Shown: positions 11,643 through 32,000 of the stretch, one piece after another
Layout: every line of letters starts with the position of its first letter
How positions within the stretch are numbered: the first letter of the stretch is position 1
Assembly: GCF_001458695.1 (NCBI RefSeq)
Contig: NZ_LN885086.1
Coordinates: 1,260,001 to 1,292,000 of the forward strand
From: Candidatus Nitrospira inopinata
GTDB taxonomy: Bacteria > Nitrospirota > Nitrospiria > Nitrospirales > Nitrospiraceae
DNA length: 32,000 bases
Direction of reading: 5' to 3'
Translations under genes and position numbers: made by a program
Notes under the pieces: generated by a model
What the model saw: only the letters and a program-made list of their open reading frames with translations
Told to the model about the DNA's origin: nothing
Databases searched by the model: none

Positions 11643-12599
11643 ATGCCTACTGTTATAATGGAGGAAAAAGAGGCGATTCTCATCGGCAAGTCGGGTGGAA
11701 CGGAAGCGCCCGGCCGCCGCCGCGCACGACGGCGGCGGGAATTCGTCATCGAGGGCGGGCTGTTGCTCGCCGCTTTGGTATCGGTGGCGACCACCGTTAC
11801 GATTCTGGCCGTCCTGTTGTTCGAGTCGCTCGGATTTTTTGAAATCGTCTCTCTCCAAGACTTCTTGACCGATACGCTGTGGACGCCCCTCTTCGATGAT
11901 CCTCACTATGGGATTTTGCCCCTGTTGGCCGGCACCATCGTCACCAGCCTCGTCGGTCTGTTGGTGGCCATTCCGGTCGGAACCGTGTCGGCCATCTATC
12001 TGTCGGAGTTCGCCTCGCCTCGCATAAGGGAAGTCATCAAACCGACGCTGGAGCTGCTGGGCGCGGTGCCGACGGTGGTCTATGGGTACTTTGCCCTCCT
12101 CGTGGTGACGCCGGCTCTGCAACTGCTGTGGCCGGACCTTCCGGGCTTTAACATGTTGGGACCAGGGATCGTCATCGGCATCATGATTCTGCCGCTCGTG
12201 ATTTCGTTGAGTGAGGACGCGATGCGGGCCGTCCCGATGATGCTGCGAGAGGGGTCCTATGCCATGGGGGCCACGCACTTGGAAACGGCGTGGCGGGTCG
12301 TCGTGCCGGCGGCCACGTCGGGCATTGTGGCGGCCTATGTGCTCGGCGTGTCGCGCGCGGTCGGCGAAACGATGGTGGTGGCGATTGCGGCCGGACAGAA
12401 TCCGAATCTCACGTGGAACCCCATGGAGCCCGCCGCCACGATTACCGCGTACATTGTCCAGGTCGCCCTCGGTGACCTGCCGCATGGCAGCATCGGCTAT
12501 CGGAGCATTTTCGCGGCCGGACTGGTGCTGGCCGTGATGACGTTCGCCTTTAACATTCTTGGGCACGTCATGCGAAAGCGGTTTCGGGAGGTTTATTAG
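11643..12599 (+). CDS. pstC: Phosphate ABC transporter permease PstC
   Basis: Multi-TM protein with an EAA-type loop (SLSEDAMRAVP...GA). Position in the pstSCAB order fits. Start uncertain: TTG 11592, ATG 11643 or ATG 11658. Confidence 0.85.
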   Translation: MPTVIMEEKEAILIGKSGGTEAPGRRRARRRREFVIEGGLLLAALVSVATTVTILAVLLFESLGFFEIVSLQDFLTDTLWTPLFDDPHYGILPLLAGTIVTSLVGLLVAIPVGTVSAIYLSEFASPRIREVIKPTLELLGAVPTVVYGYFALLVVTPALQLLWPDLPGFNMLGPGIVIGIMILPLVISLSEDAMRAVPMMLREGSYAMGATHLETAWRVVVPAATSGIVAAYVLGVSRAVGETMVVAIAAGQNPNLTWNPMEPAATITAYIVQVALGDLPHGSIGYRSIFAAGLVLAVMTFAFNILGHVMRKRFREVY

Positions 12600-12600
12600 T

Positions 12601-13491
12601 GTGATCAAGCGCCGGAAATTTTCAGAAGCCTTGTTCAAGGCGCTTGGGCTGAGCGCGCTGGTTCTGGCGGTCGGTACGCTGGTTCTGTTGTTTGGAGCGC
12701 TCCTCGTCGACGGCATCGGGCGGCTTGATTGGCGATTCATGACGTCGTTTCCCTCCCGCCATGCGTCGCAGGCCGGTATCCTCCCCGCCGTCGTCGGCTC
12801 GACCTTGGTGATGCTGGTCACAGCGTGCGTGGGGATTCCGATCGGAGTCGCCGCCGCCATTTATTTGGAAGAATACGCGAGGCGGACGTGGCTGACGGAA
12901 TTGATCGAGGTGACCGTCACGAATTTGGCCGGCGTGCCGTCGATTATTTTCGGATTGCTCGCGCTGGGGCTGTTCGTTTATATGCTGGGTCTTGGGTCGA
13001 GCATTTTGACGGCGGGGTTGACCCTGGCCTTATTGATTCTTCCGGTGGTGATCGTGACGACACGGGAAGCCATACGCGCCATTCCGGTCCAAATACGCGA
13101 GGCCGCCTTTGCGTTGGGAGCCACCAGGTGGCAGACGGTTGCCGACCACGTTTTGCCCTACTCGGCTTCGGGGATCTTGACGGGCATCATTTTGGCCCTA
13201 AGCCGCGCCATCGGGGAGACGGCTCCGATCGTGACGGTCGGAGCCCTCACGTTCATCGCGTTTCTGCCTCCTTCACCGATCACCGATCAGCCGCCATACC
13301 TCTCGTTTGAATGGCTCATGTCCCCCTTCACCGTGATGCCGATCCAGATGTTCGCTTGGGTGTCCAGGCCAGGCGAGGATTTCGCCGCCAATGCGGCCGC
13401 CGCGGGCTTGTTGTTGGTGGGAATGACCCTCGCCATGAACGGACTGGCGATCTACGTGCGCTATCGGATGCGCAAGCGCGTGTCTTGGTAA
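12601..13491 (+). CDS. pstA: Phosphate ABC transporter permease PstA
   Basis: The GTG at 12601 lies 10 nt after GGGAGG and 1 nt after the pstC stop. EAA loop ([10 protein letters not shown]...GAT). The track start at 12559 would overlap pstC by 41 nt. Confidence 0.85.
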
Positions 13492-13501
13492 CTCCGACGT
13501 C

Positions 13502-14320
13502 ATGGCCCGACCCGTGGATGGCTCACACACCGACTCGGCCGGAAGAGGAGACTGGCCCAAACCGCTCAAGGCGGAAACGTGCGAGCTGAGTTTTTACTAT
13601 GGAACTCGGCTGGTGCTGAAGCGGGTGTCGGTCCCGATCGCCGAGTGCAACATCACGGCGTTGATCGGCCCGTCCGGATGCGGCAAATCGACGTTTCTGC
13701 GATGTTTTAACCGCATGCACGATCTCTATCCCGGCACCCGCTACGAAGGAACCATCGTGCTCTATCCGGACAGCCGCAATATCCTGGACCGTGAAGTCGA
13801 TCCGATTGAAGTGCGTATGCGATTGGCCATGGTCTTTCAGAAACCCAATCCCTTTCCCAAGTCCGTGTACGAGAACGTCGCCTACGGCCTACGAGTTCGA
13901 GGGGTGAAGGATCGGCGCGTGATCGACGAAAAGGTCGAGCAGGCCTTGCGAAGCGCGGCGTTGTGGGAAGAGGTCAAGGATCGATTGTCCGCTCTGGGGA
14001 CGTCGTTGTCGGGGGGGCAGCAGCAGCGTCTCTGCATCGCCCGCGCGCTCGCGACCGATCCGGAACTGTTGCTGTTGGACGAGCCGACGTCGGCGCTCGA
14101 CCCCATTGCGACGGCGAGTATCGAAGAGCTGTTGCAGGATTTGAAACGCCGCGTGACAATTCTGATCGTGACGCATAATATGCAACAGGCAGCGCGGATC
14201 TCCGACTGGACGGCGTTCATGTATCTTGGTGAACTCGTGGAATTCGGCCCCACCAAACGGCTGTTTACGACTCCCGCGAAGAAACAGACCGAAGACTACA
14301 TCACGGGACGGTTTGGTTGA
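13502..14320 (+). CDS. pstB: Phosphate ABC transporter ATP-binding protein PstB
   Basis: Walker [10 protein letters not shown], signature LSGGQQQRL, Walker [13 protein letters not shown], and a CFNRMHDL segment typical of PstB. Confidence 0.93.
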
Positions 14321-14324
14321 GCGC

Positions 14325-14996
14325 ATGACGCAACGGCATTTTGACGAAGAACTCGCCGAACTGAAGGCCAAATTGGTGCGGATGGCCGGCTTGGCGGAAG
14401 ATCAGATCGACAAAGCGCTCGAGGCGCTCGTGAAGCGCGACTCGGAACGGGCGAGTCAGGTGATCGAACGGGATCACAAGGTCAACGCCCTGGACGTGGA
14501 GATCGACGAGGAGTGCATCAGCCTGTTGGCGCTCCACCAGCCGGCCGCGCGGGACCTGCGGTTGGTGACGACGGCCATGAAAATCTCGACGGAGCTCGAA
14601 CGGATCAGCGACCTCGCCGAAAATATCTGTGAGCGGACGATCGAACTGAACCAAGAACCCCAGTTGAAACCCTACATTGATATTCCGCGGATGGGCGGCA
14701 TTGCCAGGATGATGGTGAAAGAAAGCATCGACGCCTTCGTCAAAGAAGACGCGGCGCTCGCGAGAAAAGTCCTCAAAGACGACGATTTGGTCGATGATCT
14801 GATGGAACAGATCTTCCGTGAGCTCCTGTCGTTCATGATCGAGAACCCCCATACCATTTCGCGCGCGATCCGGCTCAGTTTTGTGGCGAAGTATTTGGAG
14901 CGAATCGCCGATCACGCCACCAACATGGCCGAGTTGGTGGTCTATCTCGTCGAGGGGAAGATCATCCGCCACACCGCGCCTCCCGTCTTTCCGTAG
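14325..14996 (+). CDS. phoU: Phosphate signalling complex protein PhoU
   Basis: The ATG at 14325 (MTQRHFDEELAELK) lies 4 nt after the pstB stop. Two PhoU repeats are present. The track start at 14226 overlaps pstB. Confidence 0.88.
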   Translation: MTQRHFDEELAELKAKLVRMAGLAEDQIDKALEALVKRDSERASQVIERDHKVNALDVEIDEECISLLALHQPAARDLRLVTTAMKISTELERISDLAENICERTIELNQEPQLKPYIDIPRMGGIARMMVKESIDAFVKEDAALARKVLKDDDLVDDLMEQIFRELLSFMIENPHTISRAIRLSFVAKYLERIADHATNMAELVVYLVEGKIIRHTAPPVFP

Positions 14997-24598: not shown

Positions 24599-26155
24599 AT
24601 GCCGCAGACGAACGGCACGGACAAATCGCTGGAATCCTGGATCTGGGACGCCGCCTGTTCGATCCGTGGCGCCAAGGACGCCCCGAAGTTCAAGGACTCC
24701 ATCCTGCCGCTGATTTTTGCGAAGCGGCTCTGCGACGTCTTCGACGACGAGCTGAACCGCATCGCCAAAGAAGTCGGCTCCCGCGCCAAGGCCTTCAAGC
24801 TCGTCAAGCAGGACAAGAAGCTCGTCCGCTTCTATCTCCCACTCCAACCGACCAATCCCGACGAGCCGGTCTGGTCTGTCATCCGCAAGCTGGCCGACAA
24901 GATCGGCGAACGGCTCACGACGCATCTCCGCGCCATCGCCGACGAGAACCCGTTGCTGAAAGGGATTATCGACCGGGTGGACTTCAACGCCACGACCCAC
25001 GGCGTGCGGGACCTGGCCGACGACCGGCTCAGCAATCTGATCGAGCGCATCAGCGAAAAGCGGCTCGGCCTCGCCGACGTGGAGCCGGACATCATCGGGC
25101 GGAGCTACGAATATCTCATCCGCAAGTTCGCCGAGGGCAGTGTCTCCAGCGCCGGTGAGTTTTACACGCCCGCCGAGGTTGGCATGGTCATGGCGAAGAT
25201 CATGGACCCGGAGCCCGGCATGGAGATCTACGACCCCTGCTGCGGCTCGGCCGGCCTGCTCATCAAGTGCGAGCTGGCGCTGGACAAAAAGATGAGCCTG
25301 CGATCGAAGAAGACCTACGTGCAGCTCAAGCTCTACGGCCAGGAGTATGTCGCCGAAACCTGGGCCATGGCGAACATGAACATGATCATCCATGACATGG
25401 AAGGCGAAATCGAGCTCGGCGATACCTTCAAGAATCCCAAATTCCGCAAGGGCAACCGCCTCCGGACCTTCGACCGGGTCGTCACCAATCCCATGTGGAA
25501 CCAGGACTGGTGGACGGAGAAGGACTACGATGCCGACGAGTGGGACCGGTTCCCGAAAGGGGCCGGCTTTCCCGGCCGCAAGGCAGACTGGGGCTGGGTG
25601 CAGATCGTGCTGGCGAGTCTCAACGAGAAGGGCCGGGCCGCCATCGTGCTCGACACGGGCGCCGCCTCGCGCGGATCGGGCAATGCCAATGCGAATAAGG
25701 AAAAGGACGTGCGCCGCTGGTTCGTGGAACAGGACTTGATCGAAGGCGTGATCTATCTACCTGAAAATCTCTTCTACAACACCACCGCGCCGGGCATCAT
25801 TCTGTTCCTCAACAAGGCCAAGCAGAAAGATCGCAAGGGCAAGCTCTTCCTCGTCAACGCCTCGCAGGAGTTCGCCAAGGGCGATCCAAAGAACTATCTT
25901 ACGGACGATGGCATTCGCCGCATCACTGAGACGTTCAAGAGTTGGAAGGAACAAGAGAAGTTCAGCCGGATCGTCACCCGCGAAGAGATCGCCAAGAACG
26001 ACTTCAACATCTCGCCAAGCCGGTACATCCACACGGGAGCGGGCGAGGAATACCGGCCGATTGGGGAGATTGTGGAGGAATTGGAAGCCCTGGATGAGGA
26101 AACGGCCCAATCTGACAAGGCCTTGAGGCAAGTTCTAAAGGGGCTGCGACTCTAG
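24599..26155 (+). CDS. hsdM: Type I restriction-modification system, DNA methyltransferase subunit M
   Basis: HsdM_N-like start (LESWIWDAACSIRGAKDAPKFKDSILPLIFAKRL), GEFYTP, SAM motif IYDPCCGSAGLL, and catalytic-position tetrapeptide NPMW. The ATG at 24599 is chosen; the upstream extension to 24326 is Arg/Gly-rich noise. Confidence 0.9.
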   Translation: MPQTNGTDKSLESWIWDAACSIRGAKDAPKFKDSILPLIFAKRLCDVFDDELNRIAKEVGSRAKAFKLVKQDKKLVRFYLPLQPTNPDEPVWSVIRKLADKIGERLTTHLRAIADENPLLKGIIDRVDFNATTHGVRDLADDRLSNLIERISEKRLGLADVEPDIIGRSYEYLIRKFAEGSVSSAGEFYTPAEVGMVMAKIMDPEPGMEIYDPCCGSAGLLIKCELALDKKMSLRSKKTYVQLKLYGQEYVAETWAMANMNMIIHDMEGEIELGDTFKNPKFRKGNRLRTFDRVVTNPMWNQDWWTEKDYDADEWDRFPKGAGFPGRKADWGWVQIVLASLNEKGRAAIVLDTGAASRGSGNANANKEKDVRRWFVEQDLIEGVIYLPENLFYNTTAPGIILFLNKAKQKDRKGKLFLVNASQEFAKGDPKNYLTDDGIRRITETFKSWKEQEKFSRIVTREEIAKNDFNISPSRYIHTGAGEEYRPIGEIVEELEALDEETAQSDKALRQVLKGLRL

Positions 26156-26158
26156 CTA

Positions 26159-27370
26159 ATGACTTGGTTGGCAATCGAATTCCCCAAGGCTCTTGAGAAG
26201 ACGAAAGTTGGCAGAGAGAACCAGATTCTCTCTTCCGAGATTAAGCCGTTCGGTCGATTTCCGGTGATCGACCAAGGGCAGACATTCATAGCTGGATACT
26301 CTGACGACGAGGGGAAGGTTATCCACAAGGAACTTCCGGTAGTAATTTTTGGAGACCATACACGCAGCATCAAGTATGTGGACTTCCCGTTCATTCTTGG
26401 AGCGGATGGCACAAAAGTGCTGAAGCCCAAGGCGGAACTCTTTGAGACCAAGTTTTTCTACTATGCGCTTATGAGCCTTGATATTCCCAATCGTGGATAC
26501 AACCGTCACTTCACTCTCCTGAAAGAGAAGACCGTTCCGCGCCCAGAGAAAGATGAGCAGCGGAAGATTGCCTCGGTGCTGAGCTTGGTGCAGCGGGCGA
26601 TTGAGCAGCAGGAGCGGCTGATCGCGCTGACGCAGGAATTGAAGAAGTCGCTGATGCACAAGCTCTTCACCGAAGGTCTCCGCGGCGAACGGCAGAAACA
26701 GACCGAGATCGGCCCCGTGCCGGAGAGTTGGGAAGTTAAGCCGCTTGGTGTTCTTGCTAAGATTGGTAACGGTTCAACTCCCAAACGAGACAACGTCAGT
26801 TATTGGGAAGATGGTTCTATTCCATGGCTGACCAGCGGGAAAATTCATGAGCGATTTATCACGGAGGCTGACGAGTTTGTCACAGAACTGGCGGCAAAAG
26901 AATCCCACCTCCCTTGCGTGAAGCCGGGGAGTCTCCTTATCGCCATTACCGGCCAAGGAAAGACGCTCGGCAATTCGGCATTGGTGACGTTTGAAACTTG
27001 CATCAGTCAGCATCTTGCCTACGCCCAATTTCACACTCCGGATATCGTGCCCGAGTTTGTCCTCTGGTATTTCCAAACCCGCTATCAACATTTGCGTTCG
27101 ATAGGTCAGGCTGGCGGGAGCACCAAAGGCGCGCTTACTTGCGGGTATCTCAAAACATATCCGGTCCCGGTGCCTTCGCGAGAAGAACAGCGCGAGATTG
27201 CAGACATCTTTACTGGGTTGGAGCAGAAAGAGCAGGTGCATATTCACAAAAGACGAACTTTGAATGACCTCTTCCGCACCCTCCTCCACCAACTTATGAC
27301 CGCGCAGATTCGCGTCCACGATCTGGATCTGTTTGAATTTGGGCTGGATTCTGAAGCTGCCGTGCCCTAA
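26159..27370 (+). CDS. hsdS: Type I restriction-modification system, specificity subunit S
   Basis: Two variable target-recognition halves separated by conserved helical repeats (EQRKIASVLSLVQRAIEQQERLIALTQELKKSLMHKLF and EQREIADIFTGLEQ...LNDLFRTLLHQLMT). Starts 3 nt after the hsdM stop. Visibly lower GC than flanking genes. Confidence 0.88.
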   Translation: MTWLAIEFPKALEKTKVGRENQILSSEIKPFGRFPVIDQGQTFIAGYSDDEGKVIHKELPVVIFGDHTRSIKYVDFPFILGADGTKVLKPKAELFETKFFYYALMSLDIPNRGYNRHFTLLKEKTVPRPEKDEQRKIASVLSLVQRAIEQQERLIALTQELKKSLMHKLFTEGLRGERQKQTEIGPVPESWEVKPLGVLAKIGNGSTPKRDNVSYWEDGSIPWLTSGKIHERFITEADEFVTELAAKESHLPCVKPGSLLIAITGQGKTLGNSALVTFETCISQHLAYAQFHTPDIVPEFVLWYFQTRYQHLRSIGQAGGSTKGALTCGYLKTYPVPVPSREEQREIADIFTGLEQKEQVHIHKRRTLNDLFRTLLHQLMTAQIRVHDLDLFEFGLDSEAAVP

Positions 27371-27384
27371 GCTGGCCTTGTCGC

Positions 27385-28167
27385 ATGATGCCGCTCGTGC
27401 TGAAAATCGATGCCACTGAACAATTTCCTCGCCTTGCCCACGCGCCTATTGCCGAGGCGGTCATCGACATACGGGCCCGCGCGGAGGCGCCCTGGGAGGA
27501 GTCAGCGGTCCGACAATGTCTGGTTCCACTGCTTCCTGCCTATCCGCACATTGAATCGCAGCGGGAATTTGAGCACGCGCTGCAAGTCGGGCCGGGCCAG
27601 GAGACCGTTCAGATACACCGGGATTTAGGCTGGAAGGGGCTGCGATGTGAGTCAGCGGATCATGTCCACATCGCCCAATTCAACCGCGACGGGTTTGTCT
27701 TCAGCCGGCTTCGTCCCTATGATCATTGGGAGCAGTTTCACGGCGAAGCGATGCGGCTGTGGAAAGTGTATCGGGACCTCGCCCGGCCGTCGGCAATCCA
27801 GCGGCTCGGTCTTCGCTTTATCAATCGCATCGAACTGCCGCTCGATGGGCTTCGGCCGGATGACTATCTCCACATGCCTGCGGATGTGCTCAAGGGGCTA
27901 CCGCTTTCGCGGGCCGGTTTCTTCCACCGGGACGTGCTTGGCGTCCCCGGCTATCCCTACCTAGTTGCGATCGTTCGAACTGTCCAGCCGATACAGGTCT
28001 CGGGCGGTAAAGGATTTGGGTTGCTCCTCGATATTGACGTATTCTCGACCGAGCCATTCGATCTCCGTGATGATCTGCTGGCACAGCGTCTGGTTGAGAT
28101 GCGATGGTTGAAAAATAAAGCATTTTTCGGCAGTATTACGCAGCAAGCATTGGAGACTTTTCAATGA
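27385..28167 (+). CDS. Uncharacterised 260-aa protein, possibly TIGR04255-family-like
   Basis: Starts 14 nt after the hsdS stop. N-terminal HAPIAEAVIDIRA, central RLGLRFINRIELP and LLLDIDV resemble my recollection of the TIGR04255 conserved hypothetical family. No catalytic motif recognised. Confidence 0.6.
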   Translation: MMPLVLKIDATEQFPRLAHAPIAEAVIDIRARAEAPWEESAVRQCLVPLLPAYPHIESQREFEHALQVGPGQETVQIHRDLGWKGLRCESADHVHIAQFNRDGFVFSRLRPYDHWEQFHGEAMRLWKVYRDLARPSAIQRLGLRFINRIELPLDGLRPDDYLHMPADVLKGLPLSRAGFFHRDVLGVPGYPYLVAIVRTVQPIQVSGGKGFGLLLDIDVFSTEPFDLRDDLLAQRLVEMRWLKNKAFFGSITQQALETFQ

Positions 28168-28661
28168 CGCTTGCCACGCTCGATTCCCCACAACTTTCCT
28201 ATGGTGCGGCCCCCACTCGTGGTGCCGGTCCCGAAGCACGTTTTATCGCAAAGCAATCCGAGGAAGGTCGGCGCCGCTTGCGGGAGGCTCATTCCATTGG
28301 TCTCGGCGCTGAACGTGCCTTTGAAGAGCTGTTCGTGGTCGCAAGGGAATGCGAAACGCGGAATTGGGATGGGCATGGGGCCACCCGTGTTTCGGCGGAA
28401 GCGATTGCCCATGCTTGCCGACTCCTGAGTGCGCTGCCGCTTGGAATTCCTGCTCCTTCCGTTGGGGCTGAGCCTGATGGGCATGTAACTTTCGAGTGGC
28501 ATCGCAGTCCACGATGGACTCTTTCCGTAAGCATCAGTCCAGAAGGCGACCTTCATTATGCTGCGCTGCTCGGCTCAAGCAAGGTTTATGGAACCGAGCC
28601 GTTCTTTGGCGAGACTCCCTCGCGTATCCTTGAATTGATCCGCCAGGTCAGTCTTCTGTGA
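28164..28661 (+). CDS. Uncharacterised 165-aa protein
   Basis: ATGA overlap with the preceding gene. Contains NWDGHGA and PDGHVTFEWH segments. No family recognised. Confidence 0.6.
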   Translation: MTLATLDSPQLSYGAAPTRGAGPEARFIAKQSEEGRRRLREAHSIGLGAERAFEELFVVARECETRNWDGHGATRVSAEAIAHACRLLSALPLGIPAPSVGAEPDGHVTFEWHRSPRWTLSVSISPEGDLHYAALLGSSKVYGTEPFFGETPSRILELIRQVSLL

Positions 28662-29059
28662 ATGAAGATATCTCATGGCCTCCGGTCACGGATGATGAAG
28701 ATTTGGCGCGTTTTGTCCTTTTCCGAGGATGGATTCGAAGCAGTCATAGCACGGTCAAACCGGATGCGTTCATTCCCTATCCTTATCCGGACCTCTCTGT
28801 AACCCGCCATATCGGGCTATCGGTGGAAGAAGTTTGGCAGATCGGCCAGGCAGTCGCTGATCGCCGTCCTGCTACGCTATATGGACGAGCGGATATCCAG
28901 GCCGTACATATCAGGCGGCAAGCCCTTCGAATCGTTCCCACTCCCGAGCCGAGAAACCATGCGAATATCACGGACTGGCCCAAGGACAAGCCCGCGCAGA
29001 AAATCATTGCCCAGGAACTTGCTGCGGTTGCGCGTTATGTGCCCAACCCAAATCAATAA
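28658..29059 (+). CDS. Uncharacterised 133-aa protein
   Basis: GTG start overlapping the upstream stop (GTGA). Segments VKPDAFIPYPYPDLSVTRH and NHANITDWPKDKPAQKIIAQELA. No family recognised. Confidence 0.55.
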   Translation: MNEDISWPPVTDDEDLARFVLFRGWIRSSHSTVKPDAFIPYPYPDLSVTRHIGLSVEEVWQIGQAVADRRPATLYGRADIQAVHIRRQALRIVPTPEPRNHANITDWPKDKPAQKIIAQELAAVARYVPNPNQ

Positions 29060-29100
29060 CCAGGGCTGGGGGCAGCTCAGATGAAACCTCGGTGAAATGG

Positions 29101-29457
29101 AGTAATACGTGATGGGTTATTACTCTGTTTCAGCCGGTCATTACCCTATTCTTTCCTTGTGCTCAGCCAAGGTCTGGAATTGGGTATTACGCAATCAAAG
29201 GGGTAATGAAGTGGGTAATGGGAGAGGGGAAGAGCTAACCGGACTCCGAAAGAGTAGCTAACCGCACGGACCCGGCGCGGCTTGGCGTAAAAGGGTGATA
29301 GCGGAGGGTTGGTGTGATCATCACATCACAAAACGGCCACGTGATATGAATAGGCGAACCTGCCGCCTGCTGGCGACGGCCAAGCCCAGGAAAGAGGGTA
29401 ATAAGGGACCGGTTATTACCCTCTTTCGTGTTCCCATTACCCTCTTTCTGAGACCGG
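29101..29457. repeat. Non-coding spacer dense in GGGTAAT/ATTACCC repeat units in both orientations
   Basis: Nine GTAAT/ATTAC cores at about 29102, 29119, 29141, 29186, 29203, 29214, 29397, 29416 and 29436. Longer units (G)AAAGAGGGTAAT(A/G)(A/G)G occur at 29139-29155 (rc), 29197-29210, 29211-29227, 29390-29404, 29413-29427 (rc) and 29435-29448 (rc). AGCTAACCG is also repeated at 29233 and 29255. Confidence 0.8.
29390..29427. repeat. Perfect 15-bp inverted repeat with an 8-nt spacer
   Basis: GAAAGAGGGTAATAA gggaccgg TTATTACCCTCTTTC, 40 nt upstream of the ATG of the hsdR remnant. Candidate operator or intrinsic terminator stem. Confidence 0.85.
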
Positions 29458-29466
29458 TTGTTCAAT

Positions 29467-29703
29467 ATGCCCTCTCCTGGTGAGCACAAGACGGTCCTGG
29501 CCCGCATCCTGGCCTATGTCCAGGAGATCGGCTGGAGCAGCTATGCGTCTCGGGAGTGGGGAAATGCAGTGCGGATGCACAAGGCATCGCTCTTTTTCAA
29601 CGATCTGGATAGACCAACAGATGATCGCGCTTCGTGTCCAGGATCTCGATTCATCGTTCCTGACGGAGGGTACCGCAGTATGAGCGGATTGGTATCACCC
29701 TGA
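29467..29703 (+). pseudogene. Degenerate duplicate of the hsdR 5' end (truncated remnant)
   Basis: The first 70 nt are about 87% identical (61/70 by hand alignment) to the start of the intact hsdR at 30460. MPSPGEHKTVLARILAYVQEIGW compares with MPAPGEHKTVQARILAYAQEIGW. A later patch ASLFFNDL matches ASLFFGDL, then similarity decays and the frame ends at 29703. Confidence 0.7.
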
Positions 29704-29782
29704 CTTGAAACGAGGTAAGATCGACACGGAGTTTACAGAGTTTCCTTCGGGCATGGGGCCCGAATTGTGTCTGCACGGCTCT

Positions 29783-30280
29783 ATGGAACGAACCCTGCAA
29801 GTCCTCAATGACCTCGAGCAGGACGGCGTGCTGAGCCGGTATGCAATCGGCGGCGCGATGGGGGCGACCTTTTATGTCGAGCCGCTGCTGACCTTCGATC
29901 TAGACGTCATCGTACTGCTGCCGGAGATGGAGAGCGGGCTGCTGACGCTCGCTCCGCTCTATGGGGCGCTGCGCGCCAAAGGTTATGCGGAAGAAGCCGA
30001 ATGTGTGGTGGTCGAGGGCGTGCCGGTCCAGTTCCTGCCTGCCTACAACGCTCTCTTGGAAGAGGCCTTGCGAGAAGCGCACGAGACGCCGTATCAGGCG
30101 ACGTCCACGCGGGTTCTCCGAGTCGAACACCTTGTGGCGATCTGTCTGCAAACCGGACGAGCGAAGGATCGTGAGCGGGTGCGGATTCTACGAGAGCAGG
30201 CCACGCTCGATCATGAGTATCTCGCCGCAGTTCTCCGTCGGCATCAACTGGAAGGAAAATGGAAAGAATGGATCGCGTGA
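29783..30280 (+). CDS. Nucleotidyltransferase-fold protein (minimal NTase / AbiEii-like)
   Basis: YAIGGAMGATFYVEPLLTFDLDVIV fits the pol-beta NTase pattern hGG-x(~14)-DhDh. C-terminal LVAICLQTGRAKDRERVRIL is typical of small bacterial NTase-like proteins. Start uncertain: TTG 29705, ATG 29753 or ATG 29783. Confidence 0.6.
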   Translation: MERTLQVLNDLEQDGVLSRYAIGGAMGATFYVEPLLTFDLDVIVLLPEMESGLLTLAPLYGALRAKGYAEEAECVVVEGVPVQFLPAYNALLEEALREAHETPYQATSTRVLRVEHLVAICLQTGRAKDRERVRILREQATLDHEYLAAVLRRHQLEGKWKEWIA

Positions 30281-30456
30281 ATCCTGAGATCGAAAAGCTC
30301 TTCCGCGCCAAAAAGCTGCGTCGGGTTCGGCTTGCTGCCCTGCCGTTCCATGAGAAGGTGCGGGCCGTCGTCCAAATGCAGCAGATGGCTGCTCCGGTAT
30401 TGCGCGCCCGAGGCAAACAGGTGCGGGTCTGGGACCTCCCACCTTCTGATATGTGA
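30259..30456 (+). CDS. Small 65-aa hypothetical protein, partner of the NTase-fold gene
   Basis: Overlaps the NTase gene by 22 nt (13 nt if ATG 30268 is used) and ends 3 nt before the hsdR ATG. Basic and helical (LFRAKKLRRVRLAALPFHEKVRAVVQMQQ). No family recognised. Confidence 0.45.
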   Translation: MERMDRVNPEIEKLFRAKKLRRVRLAALPFHEKVRAVVQMQQMAAPVLRARGKQVRVWDLPPSDM

Positions 30457-30459
30457 ACG

Positions 30460-32000
30460 ATGCCCGCTCCCGGTGAGCACAAGACGGTCCAAGCCCGTAT
30501 TCTGGCTTACGCCCAGGAGATCGGCTGGACCTATGTGCCGCGGGAGGAAGCCGAGCGGCGGCGGGGATTCGATCCCGATGCGGCGACTCCCGAAGAACAG
30601 GCCCGCTACGCCTCCCTCTTCTTCGGCGATCTGCTCCATGCCAAGGTCCGCGAATTCAATCCCAAGTATAAAGAAGCCGAAGGGGCGCTGGTCGGCGAGT
30701 TGCAACGGCTCCATGCGGACATCTACGGCAACCGCGACTTTCTGAGCTACCTCCGTAACCAGCGGACTTTTTTCTCTCCAGACGACGACCGCGAACTGGA
30801 TCTCATCCTGATCGACTACGGTGATCTTGCTCGCCCGAAAAAGGATTGGCGCAATCGCTACGAAGTCACGGAAGAGTTCTGTGTCCACAACGGCCGGTTT
30901 GGGACGCGCGAGGACGTGGTCTTCCTCATCAACGGCATTCCGATGCTGGTCATCGAGTGCAAGAACGCGACAAAGGACGAAGCTATCGCGCTCGGCATCG
31001 ACCAGATTCGCCGCTACCATCTGGAGACGCCCGAAGTGATGGTGCCGGAGATGCTGTTCACGGCCACGGAAGCCATCGGCTTTTCCTACGGCGTCACCTG
31101 GAACACCGTCCGGCGGAACATCTTTCGCTGGAAGCATGAGGAGGCGGGCCGGCTCGAAGCGAAGGTGAAGAGCTTTTGTTCCGTGCCGATGGTGCTGCGA
31201 TTCCTCAAGGACTTCATTTTATTCGCGGAGAAGGAGGAAGAACTGCAGAAGTTCATCCTGGCGCAGCATCAGACTGCTGCCGTGGACCGCGTGGTGGATC
31301 GGGCGCTCGATGCCAAACGGACCCGCGGCCTTGTCTGGCACACGCAGGGGAGCGGCAAGACCTATACGATGATCAAGGCGGCCGAGTTGCTCTTCAAGGC
31401 GCCCAAGGCCGACAAGCCGACCATCCTCTTGATGATCGACCGGAACGAACTGGAAGATCAGCTCCTCAAGAATCTGGCGGCGGTCGGCTTGAGCAATGTG
31501 GCGCACGCCTACTCGATGGTCGAGCTGACGCGGCTCCTGAAGCAAGACTATCGAGGCCTGATCGTCACCATGATCCACAAGTTCCGCGACATGCCGGCCA
31601 ATCTCAATACGAGGTCGAATATCTTCGTCCTGATCGACGAAGCGCACCGGACGACCGGGGGCGATCTGGGGAACTATCTGATGGCCGGGCTCCCGAACGC
31701 GACGTTCATCGGGCTTACCGGCACGCCGATCGACAAGACCGCCTACGGCCGGGGAACCTTCAAGACCTTCGGTTGCGAGGACGACAAGGGTTATCTCCAC
31801 AAATACTCGATCGCCGAGAGTATCGAGGACGGGACGACGCTCCCGCTCTACTACAACCTGGCGCCGAACGAGATGCTGGTGCCGCACGAGCTGATGGAGC
31901 GGGAATTTCTGTCACTGGTTGAGACTGAGGGGATCGCCGACATCGAAGAGCTGAACAAGATTCTCGACCGCGCCGTGAATCTCAAGAACTTCCTCAAGGG
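30460..32000 (+). CDS. hsdR: Type I restriction enzyme, R subunit (3' end outside the window)
   Basis: Frame 1 is open from the ATG at 30460 to the window end, which is why it is missing from the closed-ORF track. PD-(D/E)xK nuclease (EDVVFLINGIPMLVIECK), helicase motif I HTQGSGKT, motif II LIDEAHR, motif III GLTGTP. Confidence 0.92.
   Translation, partial: MPAPGEHKTVQARILAYAQEIGWTYVPREEAERRRGFDPDAATPEEQARYASLFFGDLLHAKVREFNPKYKEAEGALVGELQRLHADIYGNRDFLSYLRNQRTFFSPDDDRELDLILIDYGDLARPKKDWRNRYEVTEEFCVHNGRFGTREDVVFLINGIPMLVIECKNATKDEAIALGIDQIRRYHLETPEVMVPEMLFTATEAIGFSYGVTWNTVRRNIFRWKHEEAGRLEAKVKSFCSVPMVLRFLKDFILFAEKEEELQKFILAQHQTAAVDRVVDRALDAKRTRGLVWHTQGSGKTYTMIKAAELLFKAPKADKPTILLMIDRNELEDQLLKNLAAVGLSNVAHAYSMVELTRLLKQDYRGLIVTMIHKFRDMPANLNTRSNIFVLIDEAHRTTGGDLGNYLMAGLPNATFIGLTGTPIDKTAYGRGTFKTFGCEDDKGYLHKYSIAESIEDGTTLPLYYNLAPNEMLVPHELMEREFLSLVETEGIADIEELNKILDRAVNLKNFLK

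Follow-up and report, generated by a model that had tools for sequence, protein, structure and literature searches.

In the genome of Candidatus Nitrospira inopinata, three small genes lie between hsdS and hsdR of a type I restriction-modification (R-M) operon, all on the forward strand, and we found that these genes, here named P1, P2 and P3, constitute a discrete, horizontally moving and co-inherited unit. The trio belongs to the stretch of DNA that we analyzed, a window of 32,000 nt from contig NZ_LN885086.1 (forward strand, contig positions 1,260,001 to 1,292,000), and coordinates below are those of the window unless another locus is named. We propose, giving the idea an even chance of being right, that P1-P2-P3 is an autonomous, mobile and tripartite conflict cassette of the toxin-antitoxin (TA) or abortive-infection (Abi) type. 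In this genome the cassette would be cargo that occupies the 3' end of a transcription unit shared with hsdM and hsdS of the type I R-M operon. P3, which is small and near-neutral to basic, would be the effector or toxin; its acidic partner P2, an antitoxin or adaptor, would bind P3 and keep it inactive, with the conserved 4-nt start/stop overlap between their genes providing a fixed P2:P3 ratio. P1 would then serve as an accessory subunit which binds a substrate or trigger by means of two repeats resembling the TATA-box binding protein (TBP), a module of the kind that serves the anti-phage toxin RnlA as its RNA-binding part, here encoded in trans.

The unit is recognizable far beyond Nitrospira. 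A scan with a P3 profile, limited to one genome per species, returned 69 loci from more than 12 phyla (numbered L001 onwards where they are named here), and the completeness of the trio at each was assessed by tblastn and hidden Markov model (HMM) searches. Complete P1-P2-P3 occurs in the same order at 52 of these 69 loci with median junctions of -4 and -4 nt, which answers in the affirmative the question, raised by the first-pass annotation of this DNA, of whether the three genes co-occur in other genomes. The loci come from Nitrospirota, Desulfobacterota, Acidobacteriota, Planctomycetota, Verrucomicrobiota, Spirochaetota, Hydrogenedentota, Omnitrophota, Binatia, Beta- and Gammaproteobacteria, Bacteroidota/Ignavibacteria and other groups. 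A collection clustered at 90% holds 933 homologues of P1, 887 of P2 and 952 of P3 with identities of 50-100%, and many of these homologues are located on common contigs; for each of the three, one database entry that is 100% identical carries the name of Candidatus Nitrospira inopinata. Given some 900 homologues each and the conserved 4-nt overlaps, the trio genes are real. Identities between phyla are 55-68%, P3 of Nitrospira and P3 of deltaproteobacterial metagenome-assembled genomes (MAGs) being 68% identical, and a Methanobacteriota archaeon is the named source of one P3 relative, at 61% identity. DNA homology to a Nitrospira locus, L003, is restricted to 27403-29043, and thereby to the three trio genes and nothing else. 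We regard gene order, coupling and mobility of the trio as established.

Within the unit, the P2-P3 pair forms the core. It is present at every locus with enough sequence, and P1 is lacking at about seven divergent loci (L042, L054, L060, L062, L066, L068 and L069), where an unrelated small gene, an HNH-like gene, a longer P2 or nothing at all stands in its place. Because P2-P3 persists at these loci in the absence of P1, the pair appears to be self-sufficient. Other copies of the trio have decayed (L057, L059, L064, L065, L082 and L084). At L082 (6589-8004), a decayed copy of the hsd-trio arrangement, an IS200/IS605-type Y1 transposase interrupts hsdR and P1 is cut to 225 aa; judging from gene calls only, no gene is called within about 600 nt following P2. 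A separate observation concerns another Nitrospira MAG (L002 7509-10478), in which the window's ubiE neighbor is found again about 0.8 kb from the trio and both hsdM and hsdS are absent. Its DNA homology to the window begins 46 nt ahead of P1, within the 3' end of the window's hsdS, and this boundary suggests either a deletion of hsdMS or a common boundary of the cassette. No trio was found in complete genomes of E. coli when trio DNA from a Klebsiella MAG was used as the query.

In the window, P1 (27385..28167, 260 aa, with its ATG at 27385) is the first gene of the cassette and follows the stop of hsdS after 14 nt. P2 (28164..28661, 165 aa) overlaps P1 at an ATGA (28164-28167), and P3 (28658..29059, 133 aa), which starts with GTG, overlaps P2 at a GTGA (28658-28661). 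Upstream, hsdM (24599..26155; ATG at 24599, stop codon TAG at 26153-26155) encodes the methyltransferase subunit of the type I enzyme, as judged from Pfam N6_Mtase (313 bits), HsdM_N and PADLOC MTase_I (548 bits), and it is followed after 3 nt by hsdS (26159..27370; ATG at 26159, stop codon TAA at 27368-27370), the specificity subunit, with matches to Pfam Methylase_S and PADLOC Specificity_I (245 bits). The gene for the restriction subunit, hsdR (30460..32000, forward strand), was identified from its translation and from comparison with L001 and L004, to which it is 96% and 80% identical, respectively; it runs past the end of the window, and its full-length homologues carry HSDR_N, ResIII, SWI2_SNF2 and T1R_D3-like domains (Pfam). 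It starts 3,089 nt past the hsdS stop and 1,400 nt past the P3 stop. The sequence bears out the first-pass annotation on the 3-nt and 14-nt gaps, the ATGA and GTGA overlaps, the sizes of 260, 165 and 133 aa and the distance of 3.1 kb to hsdR. From hsdM to P3, no terminator-like or promoter-like site rises above chance, which is compatible with a single hsdM-to-P3 transcript and weakly suggests one.

The composition of the cassette differs from that of the host. The first-pass annotation had noted lower GC from hsdS through the cassette, and this holds weakly for total GC (hsdS 0.52, P1 0.58, P2 0.58 and P3 0.54, with flanks at 0.59-0.60) and strongly for GC at third codon positions (GC3). The latter is 0.60 in hsdS, 0.63 in P1, 0.51 in P2 and 0.52 in P3, as compared with 0.66-0.81 in 13 other host open reading frames (ORFs), 0.84 in hsdM and 0.81 in hsdR. 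By these values the trio is foreign in composition; as a unit, it moves between phyla.

The proposed effector, P3, represents a large family, with 2,480 representatives at 50% identity recovered from 1.84 billion proteins at E<=1e-3, nearly all of which are stand-alone proteins of 125-145 aa. In 108 diverse members, H101 is invariant and E14, R18, S47, R50, R77, D79, W107, P108 and K111 are conserved at 90% or more; the polar set E14, R18, S47, R50, R77, D79, H101 and K111 has the look of an enzyme active site and could be one. The same 108 sequences, P3 together with its diverse relatives, matched no Pfam family apart from scattered single chance matches, and no credible PDB relative was found by sequence profile, including a profile of all 108. 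The window P3 has no match in PADLOC, NCBIfam or PHROGs, and a Foldseek search of its predicted structure against PDB and BFVD returned nothing at E<0.4. The highest template modeling (TM) scores against PDB belong to ADP-ribosyltransferase (ART)-type proteins of the KptA/Tpt1 kind (1wfx, 9ld6 and 9ldi, TMq 0.36-0.41), which are non-significant scores obtained with a low-confidence model. NarE and AvrPphF ORF2 also stand in the Foldseek list, all ART-type matches having E>1 and a probability of at most 0.09, and sequence searches place P3 in no ART family. We therefore treat an ART/Tpt1 relationship as a lead only and do not adopt it. Assignment of P3 to HEPN was considered and rejected, since the protein is predicted to be alpha/beta, its conserved arginine and histidine residues are not in the Rx4-6H arrangement, and no HEPN match was found.

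In P2, the N-terminal third varies and the C-terminal domain is conserved, with the pattern NWDGYGA...LP...P...EPDG..T.EW...Y.A; W68, A73, G106, E111, W112 and G143 are invariant. The P2 family is acidic, with a median isoelectric point (pI) of 5.1, and P3 stands near 7.9. Despite its 887 homologues, P2 has no match in Pfam, NCBIfam, PHROGs or PDB (by sequence profile). Residues 66-135 of the window P2 align with positions 273-342 of the 375 positions of the PADLOC model PDC-M32A, in a weak match of 70 residues (E 1.7e-3). When 109 P1, P2, P3 and related sequences were pooled and scanned with PADLOC, 23 matched one PDC-M32A model (best E 3.7e-5), 9 matched a second PDC-M32A model and 3 matched PDC-M32B (best E 1.7e-5), counts that belong to the pool as a whole and do not tell which of its members matched. 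At E<=1, PADLOC gives no match for P1 or P3 of the window. Profile searches found no known effector domain in the trio, in agreement with the first-pass annotation, which had recognized no known effector motif, and we regard this absence of known domains as established.

For P1, a family could be named. The protein matches NCBIfam TIGR04255 with 105.5 bits (E 3.9e-30) over residues 16-259, aligned to positions 1-251 of the 252-position model, and this full-length match, well above the curated cut-off of 30 bits, makes P1 a member of the family. NCBIfam describes TIGR04255 as "sporadically distributed" and uncharacterised and gives no functional annotation, and our literature search found no publication which mentions TIGR04255 or describes the trio. 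The three genes had been introduced as uncharacterised; this remains true of P2 and P3, which belong to no described family, and has to be amended for P1, whose family is named but uncharacterised. P1 itself has no match in Pfam, PADLOC or PHROGs and no sequence-profile match in PDB. Its AlphaFold2 model (predicted local distance difference test score, pLDDT, 88; predicted TM score, pTM, 0.85) has two tandem beta-alpha-beta4-alpha repeats, and the top Foldseek matches in PDB are TATA-box binding proteins, with probabilities of 0.99-1.0, E of about 4e-4 and TM scores of 0.26-0.37. Low TM scores to TBP are in keeping with a shared repeat topology and a different geometry between the repeats. We thus predict with confidence that P1 folds as two TBP-like repeats. 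In a divergent alignment of the family, Y112, W115, R144, N147, D216 and F247 are invariant. This fold has a precedent in the anti-phage toxin RnlA, in which tandem domains of the TBP-like kind bind the substrate (PMC8266594), and such domains are also reported in fusion with Schlafen nucleases of bacterial defence (PMC13056530).

TIGR04255 genes also occur apart from P2 and P3, and their company is informative. P1 aligns with the annotated TIGR04255 proteins of five plasmids, invariant residues included. Annotated TIGR04255 genes on plasmids are 24-31% identical to P1, and each is the first in a short overlapping array. On Vibrio parahaemolyticus plasmid CP063527 (L072 158-2105), the TIGR04255 gene is followed by a gene for a 179-aa hypothetical protein and by a zeta-toxin gene (Pfam Zeta_toxin, 46.8 bits) which overlaps the middle gene by 4 nt; this array is the clearest link of TIGR04255 to a known toxin. 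An Acinetobacter baumannii plasmid carries TIGR04255 with an Xre/CI-type helix-turn-helix (HTH) protein and a 273-aa protein, and a Rhodococcus plasmid carries it with an HTH regulator. On a Crinalium plasmid and a Methylocystis plasmid, TIGR04255 is followed by two further genes, the Methylocystis array adjoining a gene annotated as "abortive infection family protein", and on a Thermus plasmid TIGR04255 and one further gene lie between a VapBC pair and CRISPR genes. The Xre/CI-type HTH is found in the middle genes of two distant TIGR04255 arrays and is not found in P2. Beside a normal trio at L022 lies a second module (12576-14515) in which a TIGR04255-like gene is joined by a gene resembling P2 (E 6.5e-5 by hhalign) and by an unrelated third gene of 178 aa that shows no similarity to the P3 profile by hhalign; this arrangement suggests that effector genes may be exchanged. 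A 407-aa protein, P0274, which seemed to be a P1 fusion, was set aside as an internal duplication or an assembly artefact and does not represent a P1-P2 fusion.

The association of the trio with R-M genes is likewise established. At all 69 loci we searched the ORFs next to the trio, two to either side, with Pfam and PADLOC, and the sole recurrent neighbor families were those of R-M systems: Methylase_S (10) and N6_Mtase (6) upstream, and ResIII (9), HSDR_N (7), SWI2_SNF2 (6) and a small number of methylases of types III and II downstream. All other neighbors are housekeeping singletons, for example MutS, DnaE, ThiC, GidA, menaquinone synthesis and SIMPL/AhpC. Since R-M genes are the only defence neighbors that recur, the trio is not a generic resident of defence islands. 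Iterated HMM searches located type I hsd genes within 10 kb at 17 of the 69 loci, always on the strand of the trio and in at least five arrangements. Eleven of these 17 belong to a single hsdM lineage, 75-97% identical to that of the window, with the order hsdM-hsdS-trio-hsdR. The other arrangements are hsdM-hsdS-trio with an hsdM of 37% identity, hsdR-x-trio, hsdR-hsdM-x-hsdS-trio and hsdR-x-trio-hsdS-hsdM. The layout of the window, with the trio between hsd genes of one operon, recurs at L001, L004, L005, L007, L010, L021, L029, L040, L044, L073 and L085. At L035, an Eco57I-like methylase (type IIG-like) and an SNF2/PLD helicase lie ahead of the trio. Ten look-ups on long contigs, made as an independent sample, put the trio within an R-M operon or directly beside one in five cases, three of type I and two of a type III-like kind at one shared site. 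We also note a site of the order AhpC-SIMPL-trio which is followed at L076 and L087 by a type III-like operon (N6_N4_Mtase, DUF6978, DUF1828/1829, ResIII) and which occurs at L086 without R-M genes; the occurrence of this site with and without R-M indicates that trio and R-M join and separate repeatedly there.

The trio is not the only passenger of these operons. In the same hsd lineage, the same gaps also hold genes for Fic, RhuM, a YhcG-type PDDEXK protein, SWIB, RelE/ParE, an Mrr-like protein (Mrr_cat), ATP-grasp and 23S_rRNA_IVP, and some gaps are packed with cargo (L044 3600-10640, L073 3544-11001 and L085 1741-4688), and at L044 the C-terminal domain of P2 is present in two additional copies, solo or fused. 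With so many unrelated genes in the same hsd gaps, the position can be viewed as a cargo hotspot. About 70% of loci have no R-M gene or other recognized defence gene among the closest neighbors of the trio, which argues that the cassette is autonomous rather than an R-M accessory and speaks against an obligate dependence on the R-M enzyme. The suggestion in the first-pass annotation that the trio is defence cargo is thus strengthened by recurrent embedding in R-M loci (17 of 69 for type I) and weakened by the large share of loci where the cassette stands on its own.

A TA or Abi-type conflict module with P2-P3 as its core and P1 as an accessory fits the coupling of the genes, the self-sufficient pair of an acidic P2 and a more basic P3, and the arrays in which P1 relatives stand with HTH and zeta genes. 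It also fits the patchy spread across phyla, the atypical codon composition, the decay and the company of R-M and TA genes. We infer toxicity, neutralisation, sensing and any anti-phage effect of the trio, and it is context alone which points to a role in defence. Several results weigh against the proposed cassette. Searches of Pfam, NCBIfam, PADLOC and PHROGs and with the P3 profile gave no significant match of any trio protein to a known toxin, antitoxin or defence protein. The AlphaFold2 model of P3 is weak (best pLDDT 72, the other four at most 48), and neither sequence nor structure searches assign its fold. Most type II antitoxins have a DNA-binding domain (ribbon-helix-helix, RHH; HTH; AbrB; or Phd) for autoregulation, and P2 is without a DNA-binding domain recognizable by Pfam or NCBIfam. 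P1 is mildly acidic (pI 6.0), which disfavors nucleic-acid binding. Housekeeping genes are the only neighbors at about 70% of loci. Plasmids, phages and viral contigs are usually rich in addiction and defence modules, yet tblastn found no copy of P3 or P2 on 72,556 plasmids and no copy of P3 in 50,697 phage records, and the P3-profile scan found none in IMG/VR. Finally, two-gene arrays of TIGR04255 and an HTH gene could make P1, and not P3, the effector.

Some of these results would be expected if the trio were an accessory for a stress-response, regulatory or metabolic function outside biological conflict, one that is mobile and has reached R-M operons through chance or hitch-hiking. The mostly housekeeping neighbors, the lack of a toxin, nuclease or NTPase signature in the trio and the absence from the phage, plasmid and viral collections searched are all compatible with such a function. 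We nevertheless consider it unlikely, given that 25-50% of loci adjoin R-M genes, as against far below 1% for a random gene by our own rough estimate, that the phyletic spread is patchy with high identity between phyla and decaying copies, that P1 relatives are linked to a zeta toxin, an Xre-type HTH and an Abi-family gene, and that 23 of the 109 pooled sequences match a PADLOC defence-candidate model. The R-M association could, in turn, be read more literally, with the trio as a dedicated R-M accessory: a guard which senses anti-restriction (DNA mimics, S-adenosylmethionine depletion or HsdR inhibition) or a loss of methylation and then kills or arrests the cell, in a logic like that of PrrC with EcoprrI, or a modulator of restriction, for example in alleviation. 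Such an accessory would account for R-M genes of type I, III-like and IIG-like kinds as the only recurrent defence neighbors, close by and on the same strand, for the five of ten independent long contigs in which the trio adjoins R-M, for the finding that no other defence family recurs, and for the 14 nt between hsdS and the window trio; a TBP-like saddle in P1, as predicted, could in principle bind DNA or DNA-mimic proteins. Set against this are the roughly 70% of loci without an R-M gene within 10 kb, some of them in close relatives, the persistence of the trio without R-M at L003 and at L086 as compared with L076, and the acidity of P1. Moreover, 11 of the 17 type I cases trace to one hsd lineage which moves as a block and so represent fewer independent events, and the unrelated cargo in the same hsd gaps means that the position may merely mark a permissive hotspot. 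On balance, a dedicated R-M accessory seems quite improbable to us.

The three genes could also form a conflict module with permuted roles, P1 being the effector and P2, P3 or both being regulators or immunity proteins. Across arrays that vary in their other genes TIGR04255 is always present, on the Rhodococcus plasmid it is paired with an HTH regulator only, in a toxin-first layout like that of higBA, and the invariant polar residues E24, R144, N147, D216 and K243 of P1 are compatible with catalysis. However, TBP-like domains are known as binding and not as catalytic modules (PMC8266594), P2-P3 persists without P1 at about seven loci, and the last gene of the Vibrio TIGR04255 array encodes a zeta toxin, so that the toxin stands third there. 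We regard this permutation as very unlikely, and we retain the cassette with P3 as effector, P2 as its neutralising partner and P1 as a binding subunit as our preferred proposal.

The anticodon nuclease PrrC sits in the EcoprrI type I R-M locus, and Campylobacter offers another such case in the Rlo genes of its type I loci. The trio resembles PrrC in lying between hsd genes of one operon and sharing their strand. A further common point would be the logic proposed for the cassette, a suicide or guard function which travels with R-M as a second line. The two differ in that the trio comprises three small proteins rather than one and is mostly found away from R-M, as an autonomous unit. A PrrC-like identity was rejected because Pfam, NCBIfam and PADLOC show no ABC-ATPase or nuclease domain and no similarity; the comparison with prrC made in the first-pass annotation is therefore apt for position and does not extend to the proteins. 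Another parallel is found in the anti-phage TA systems RnlA-RnlB and LsoA-LsoB, small mobile modules with a neutralising partner, the role that we propose for P2. RnlA has two N-terminal TBP-like substrate-binding domains (PMC8266594), and P1 is predicted to have two TBP-like repeats. In RnlA, these domains are fused to a HEPN RNase, whereas in the trio P1 stands as a protein of its own and P3 does not belong to HEPN. RnlA and P1 show no similarity in sequence, and RnlA lies outside the top 50 Foldseek matches of P1.

The three-gene omega-epsilon-zeta and two-gene PezAT systems offer a parallel to the proposed layout of accessory first, antidote and then toxin. They differ in that P3 has no P-loop, Zeta_toxin or AAA match (such a third gene being seen in the Vibrio plasmid TIGR04255 array only), P1 is not an omega-type RHH repressor, and P2 is unrelated to epsilon/PezA in the searches run. 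P2 and P3 are similar to type II TA pairs in being small, adjacent, co-directional and inherited together, with a median junction of -4 nt over 52 loci, but by the searches run P3 falls in no known toxin superfamily, and P2 has no DNA-binding domain. Any likeness to PDC-M32, an uncharacterised two-gene (A, B) phage-defence candidate of PADLOC, would consist of the weak and partial matches of P2 and of the pooled sequences; we found one paper on PDC-M32, in which it appears as a PADLOC match in Sinorhizobium prophages (PMC12429752). PADLOC (2023) does not contain the trio. Cargo in type I loci and three-gene TA/Abi modules are already established, and it is the parts of the trio that are new, as is the connection of TIGR04255 with P2/P3, with R-M loci and with a TBP-like fold. 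The trio is real and conserved, and it is a good candidate for a TA-like or anti-phage module.

The 1.4 kb between P3 and hsdR, whose content the first-pass annotation had missed, comprises a regulatory-looking intergenic region, an orphan hsdR start and a two-gene insertion. The intergenic region (29060..29466, forward strand, 407 nt) precedes the ancestral start of hsdR and is conserved directly upstream of hsdR in L001, the closest relative locus (88-91% DNA identity). A repeat search located in it the palindromes GAAAGAGGGTAAT...ATTACCCTCTTTC at 29387-29448, the near-perfect palindromes GAAAGAGGGTAATAA / TTATTACCCTCTTTC and a direct repeat of 38 nt at 29094 (29094-29131) and 29390, and L001 has conserved these elements ahead of its hsdR. 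This region is likely to be the hsdR promoter/operator region, and no regulator gene is evident near it. The conservation of the palindromes in L001 suggests a separate, regulated promoter for hsdR, in which case the trio would belong to the hsdMS transcription unit. Next comes an orphan duplicate of the 5'-terminal 70 nt of hsdR (29467..29536, forward strand), 87% identical to 30460-30529, which marks the left end of a later insertion. The alignment of L001 to the window stops at 29536 and resumes at 30460, and the intervening block of 923 nt (29537..30459, forward strand), absent from L001, lies outside the trio. Its two ORFs encode 191 aa (29705-30280) and 65 aa (30259-30456), the latter ending 3 nt short of the hsdR ATG. 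Neither has a match in Pfam, NCBIfam, PHROGs or PDB or a tblastn match in the 69 loci; the motif TFDLDV of the 191-aa ORF presumably resembles a nucleotidyltransferase signature. The block looks like a second and later insertion of cargo, which may have occurred by recombination at the 5' end of hsdR. Within hsdS, the first target recognition domain (TRD1, approximately 26105-26554) has no DNA homology to L001 and its flanks are 88-90% identical, a pattern that points to a TRD swap and hence to a different specificity in R-M systems that are almost the same in all else.

P2 and P3 represent two large families outside Pfam, NCBIfam, PHROGs and PDB that are tied to the unstudied TIGR04255 in a conserved operon, and one concrete hypothesis now covers three dark-matter families. 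The association is unusual in that it concerns R-M operons of more than one type and not defence islands as such, and it calls for explanation. The gap between hsdS and hsdR is a hotspot in one type I lineage that has been transferred widely, and it could be mined for further unknown genes. It is conceivable, though we would not expect it, that TIGR04255 is the trigger- or substrate-binding hub of an unrecognized modular class of conflict systems with interchangeable antidote and effector partners (P2-P3, HTH proteins, zeta toxin and others), that P3 is a toxin of a new fold, and that repeated capture by R-M operons of types I, III and IIG reflects a functional partnership in which the cassette would back up restriction disabled by a phage. 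Should the trio prove to act in defence or toxicity, it would offer a new effector fold together with a new, trans-acting use of the RnlA-type TBP-like module; should a role in conflict be refuted, it would still illustrate clearly how three genes can move as one unit.

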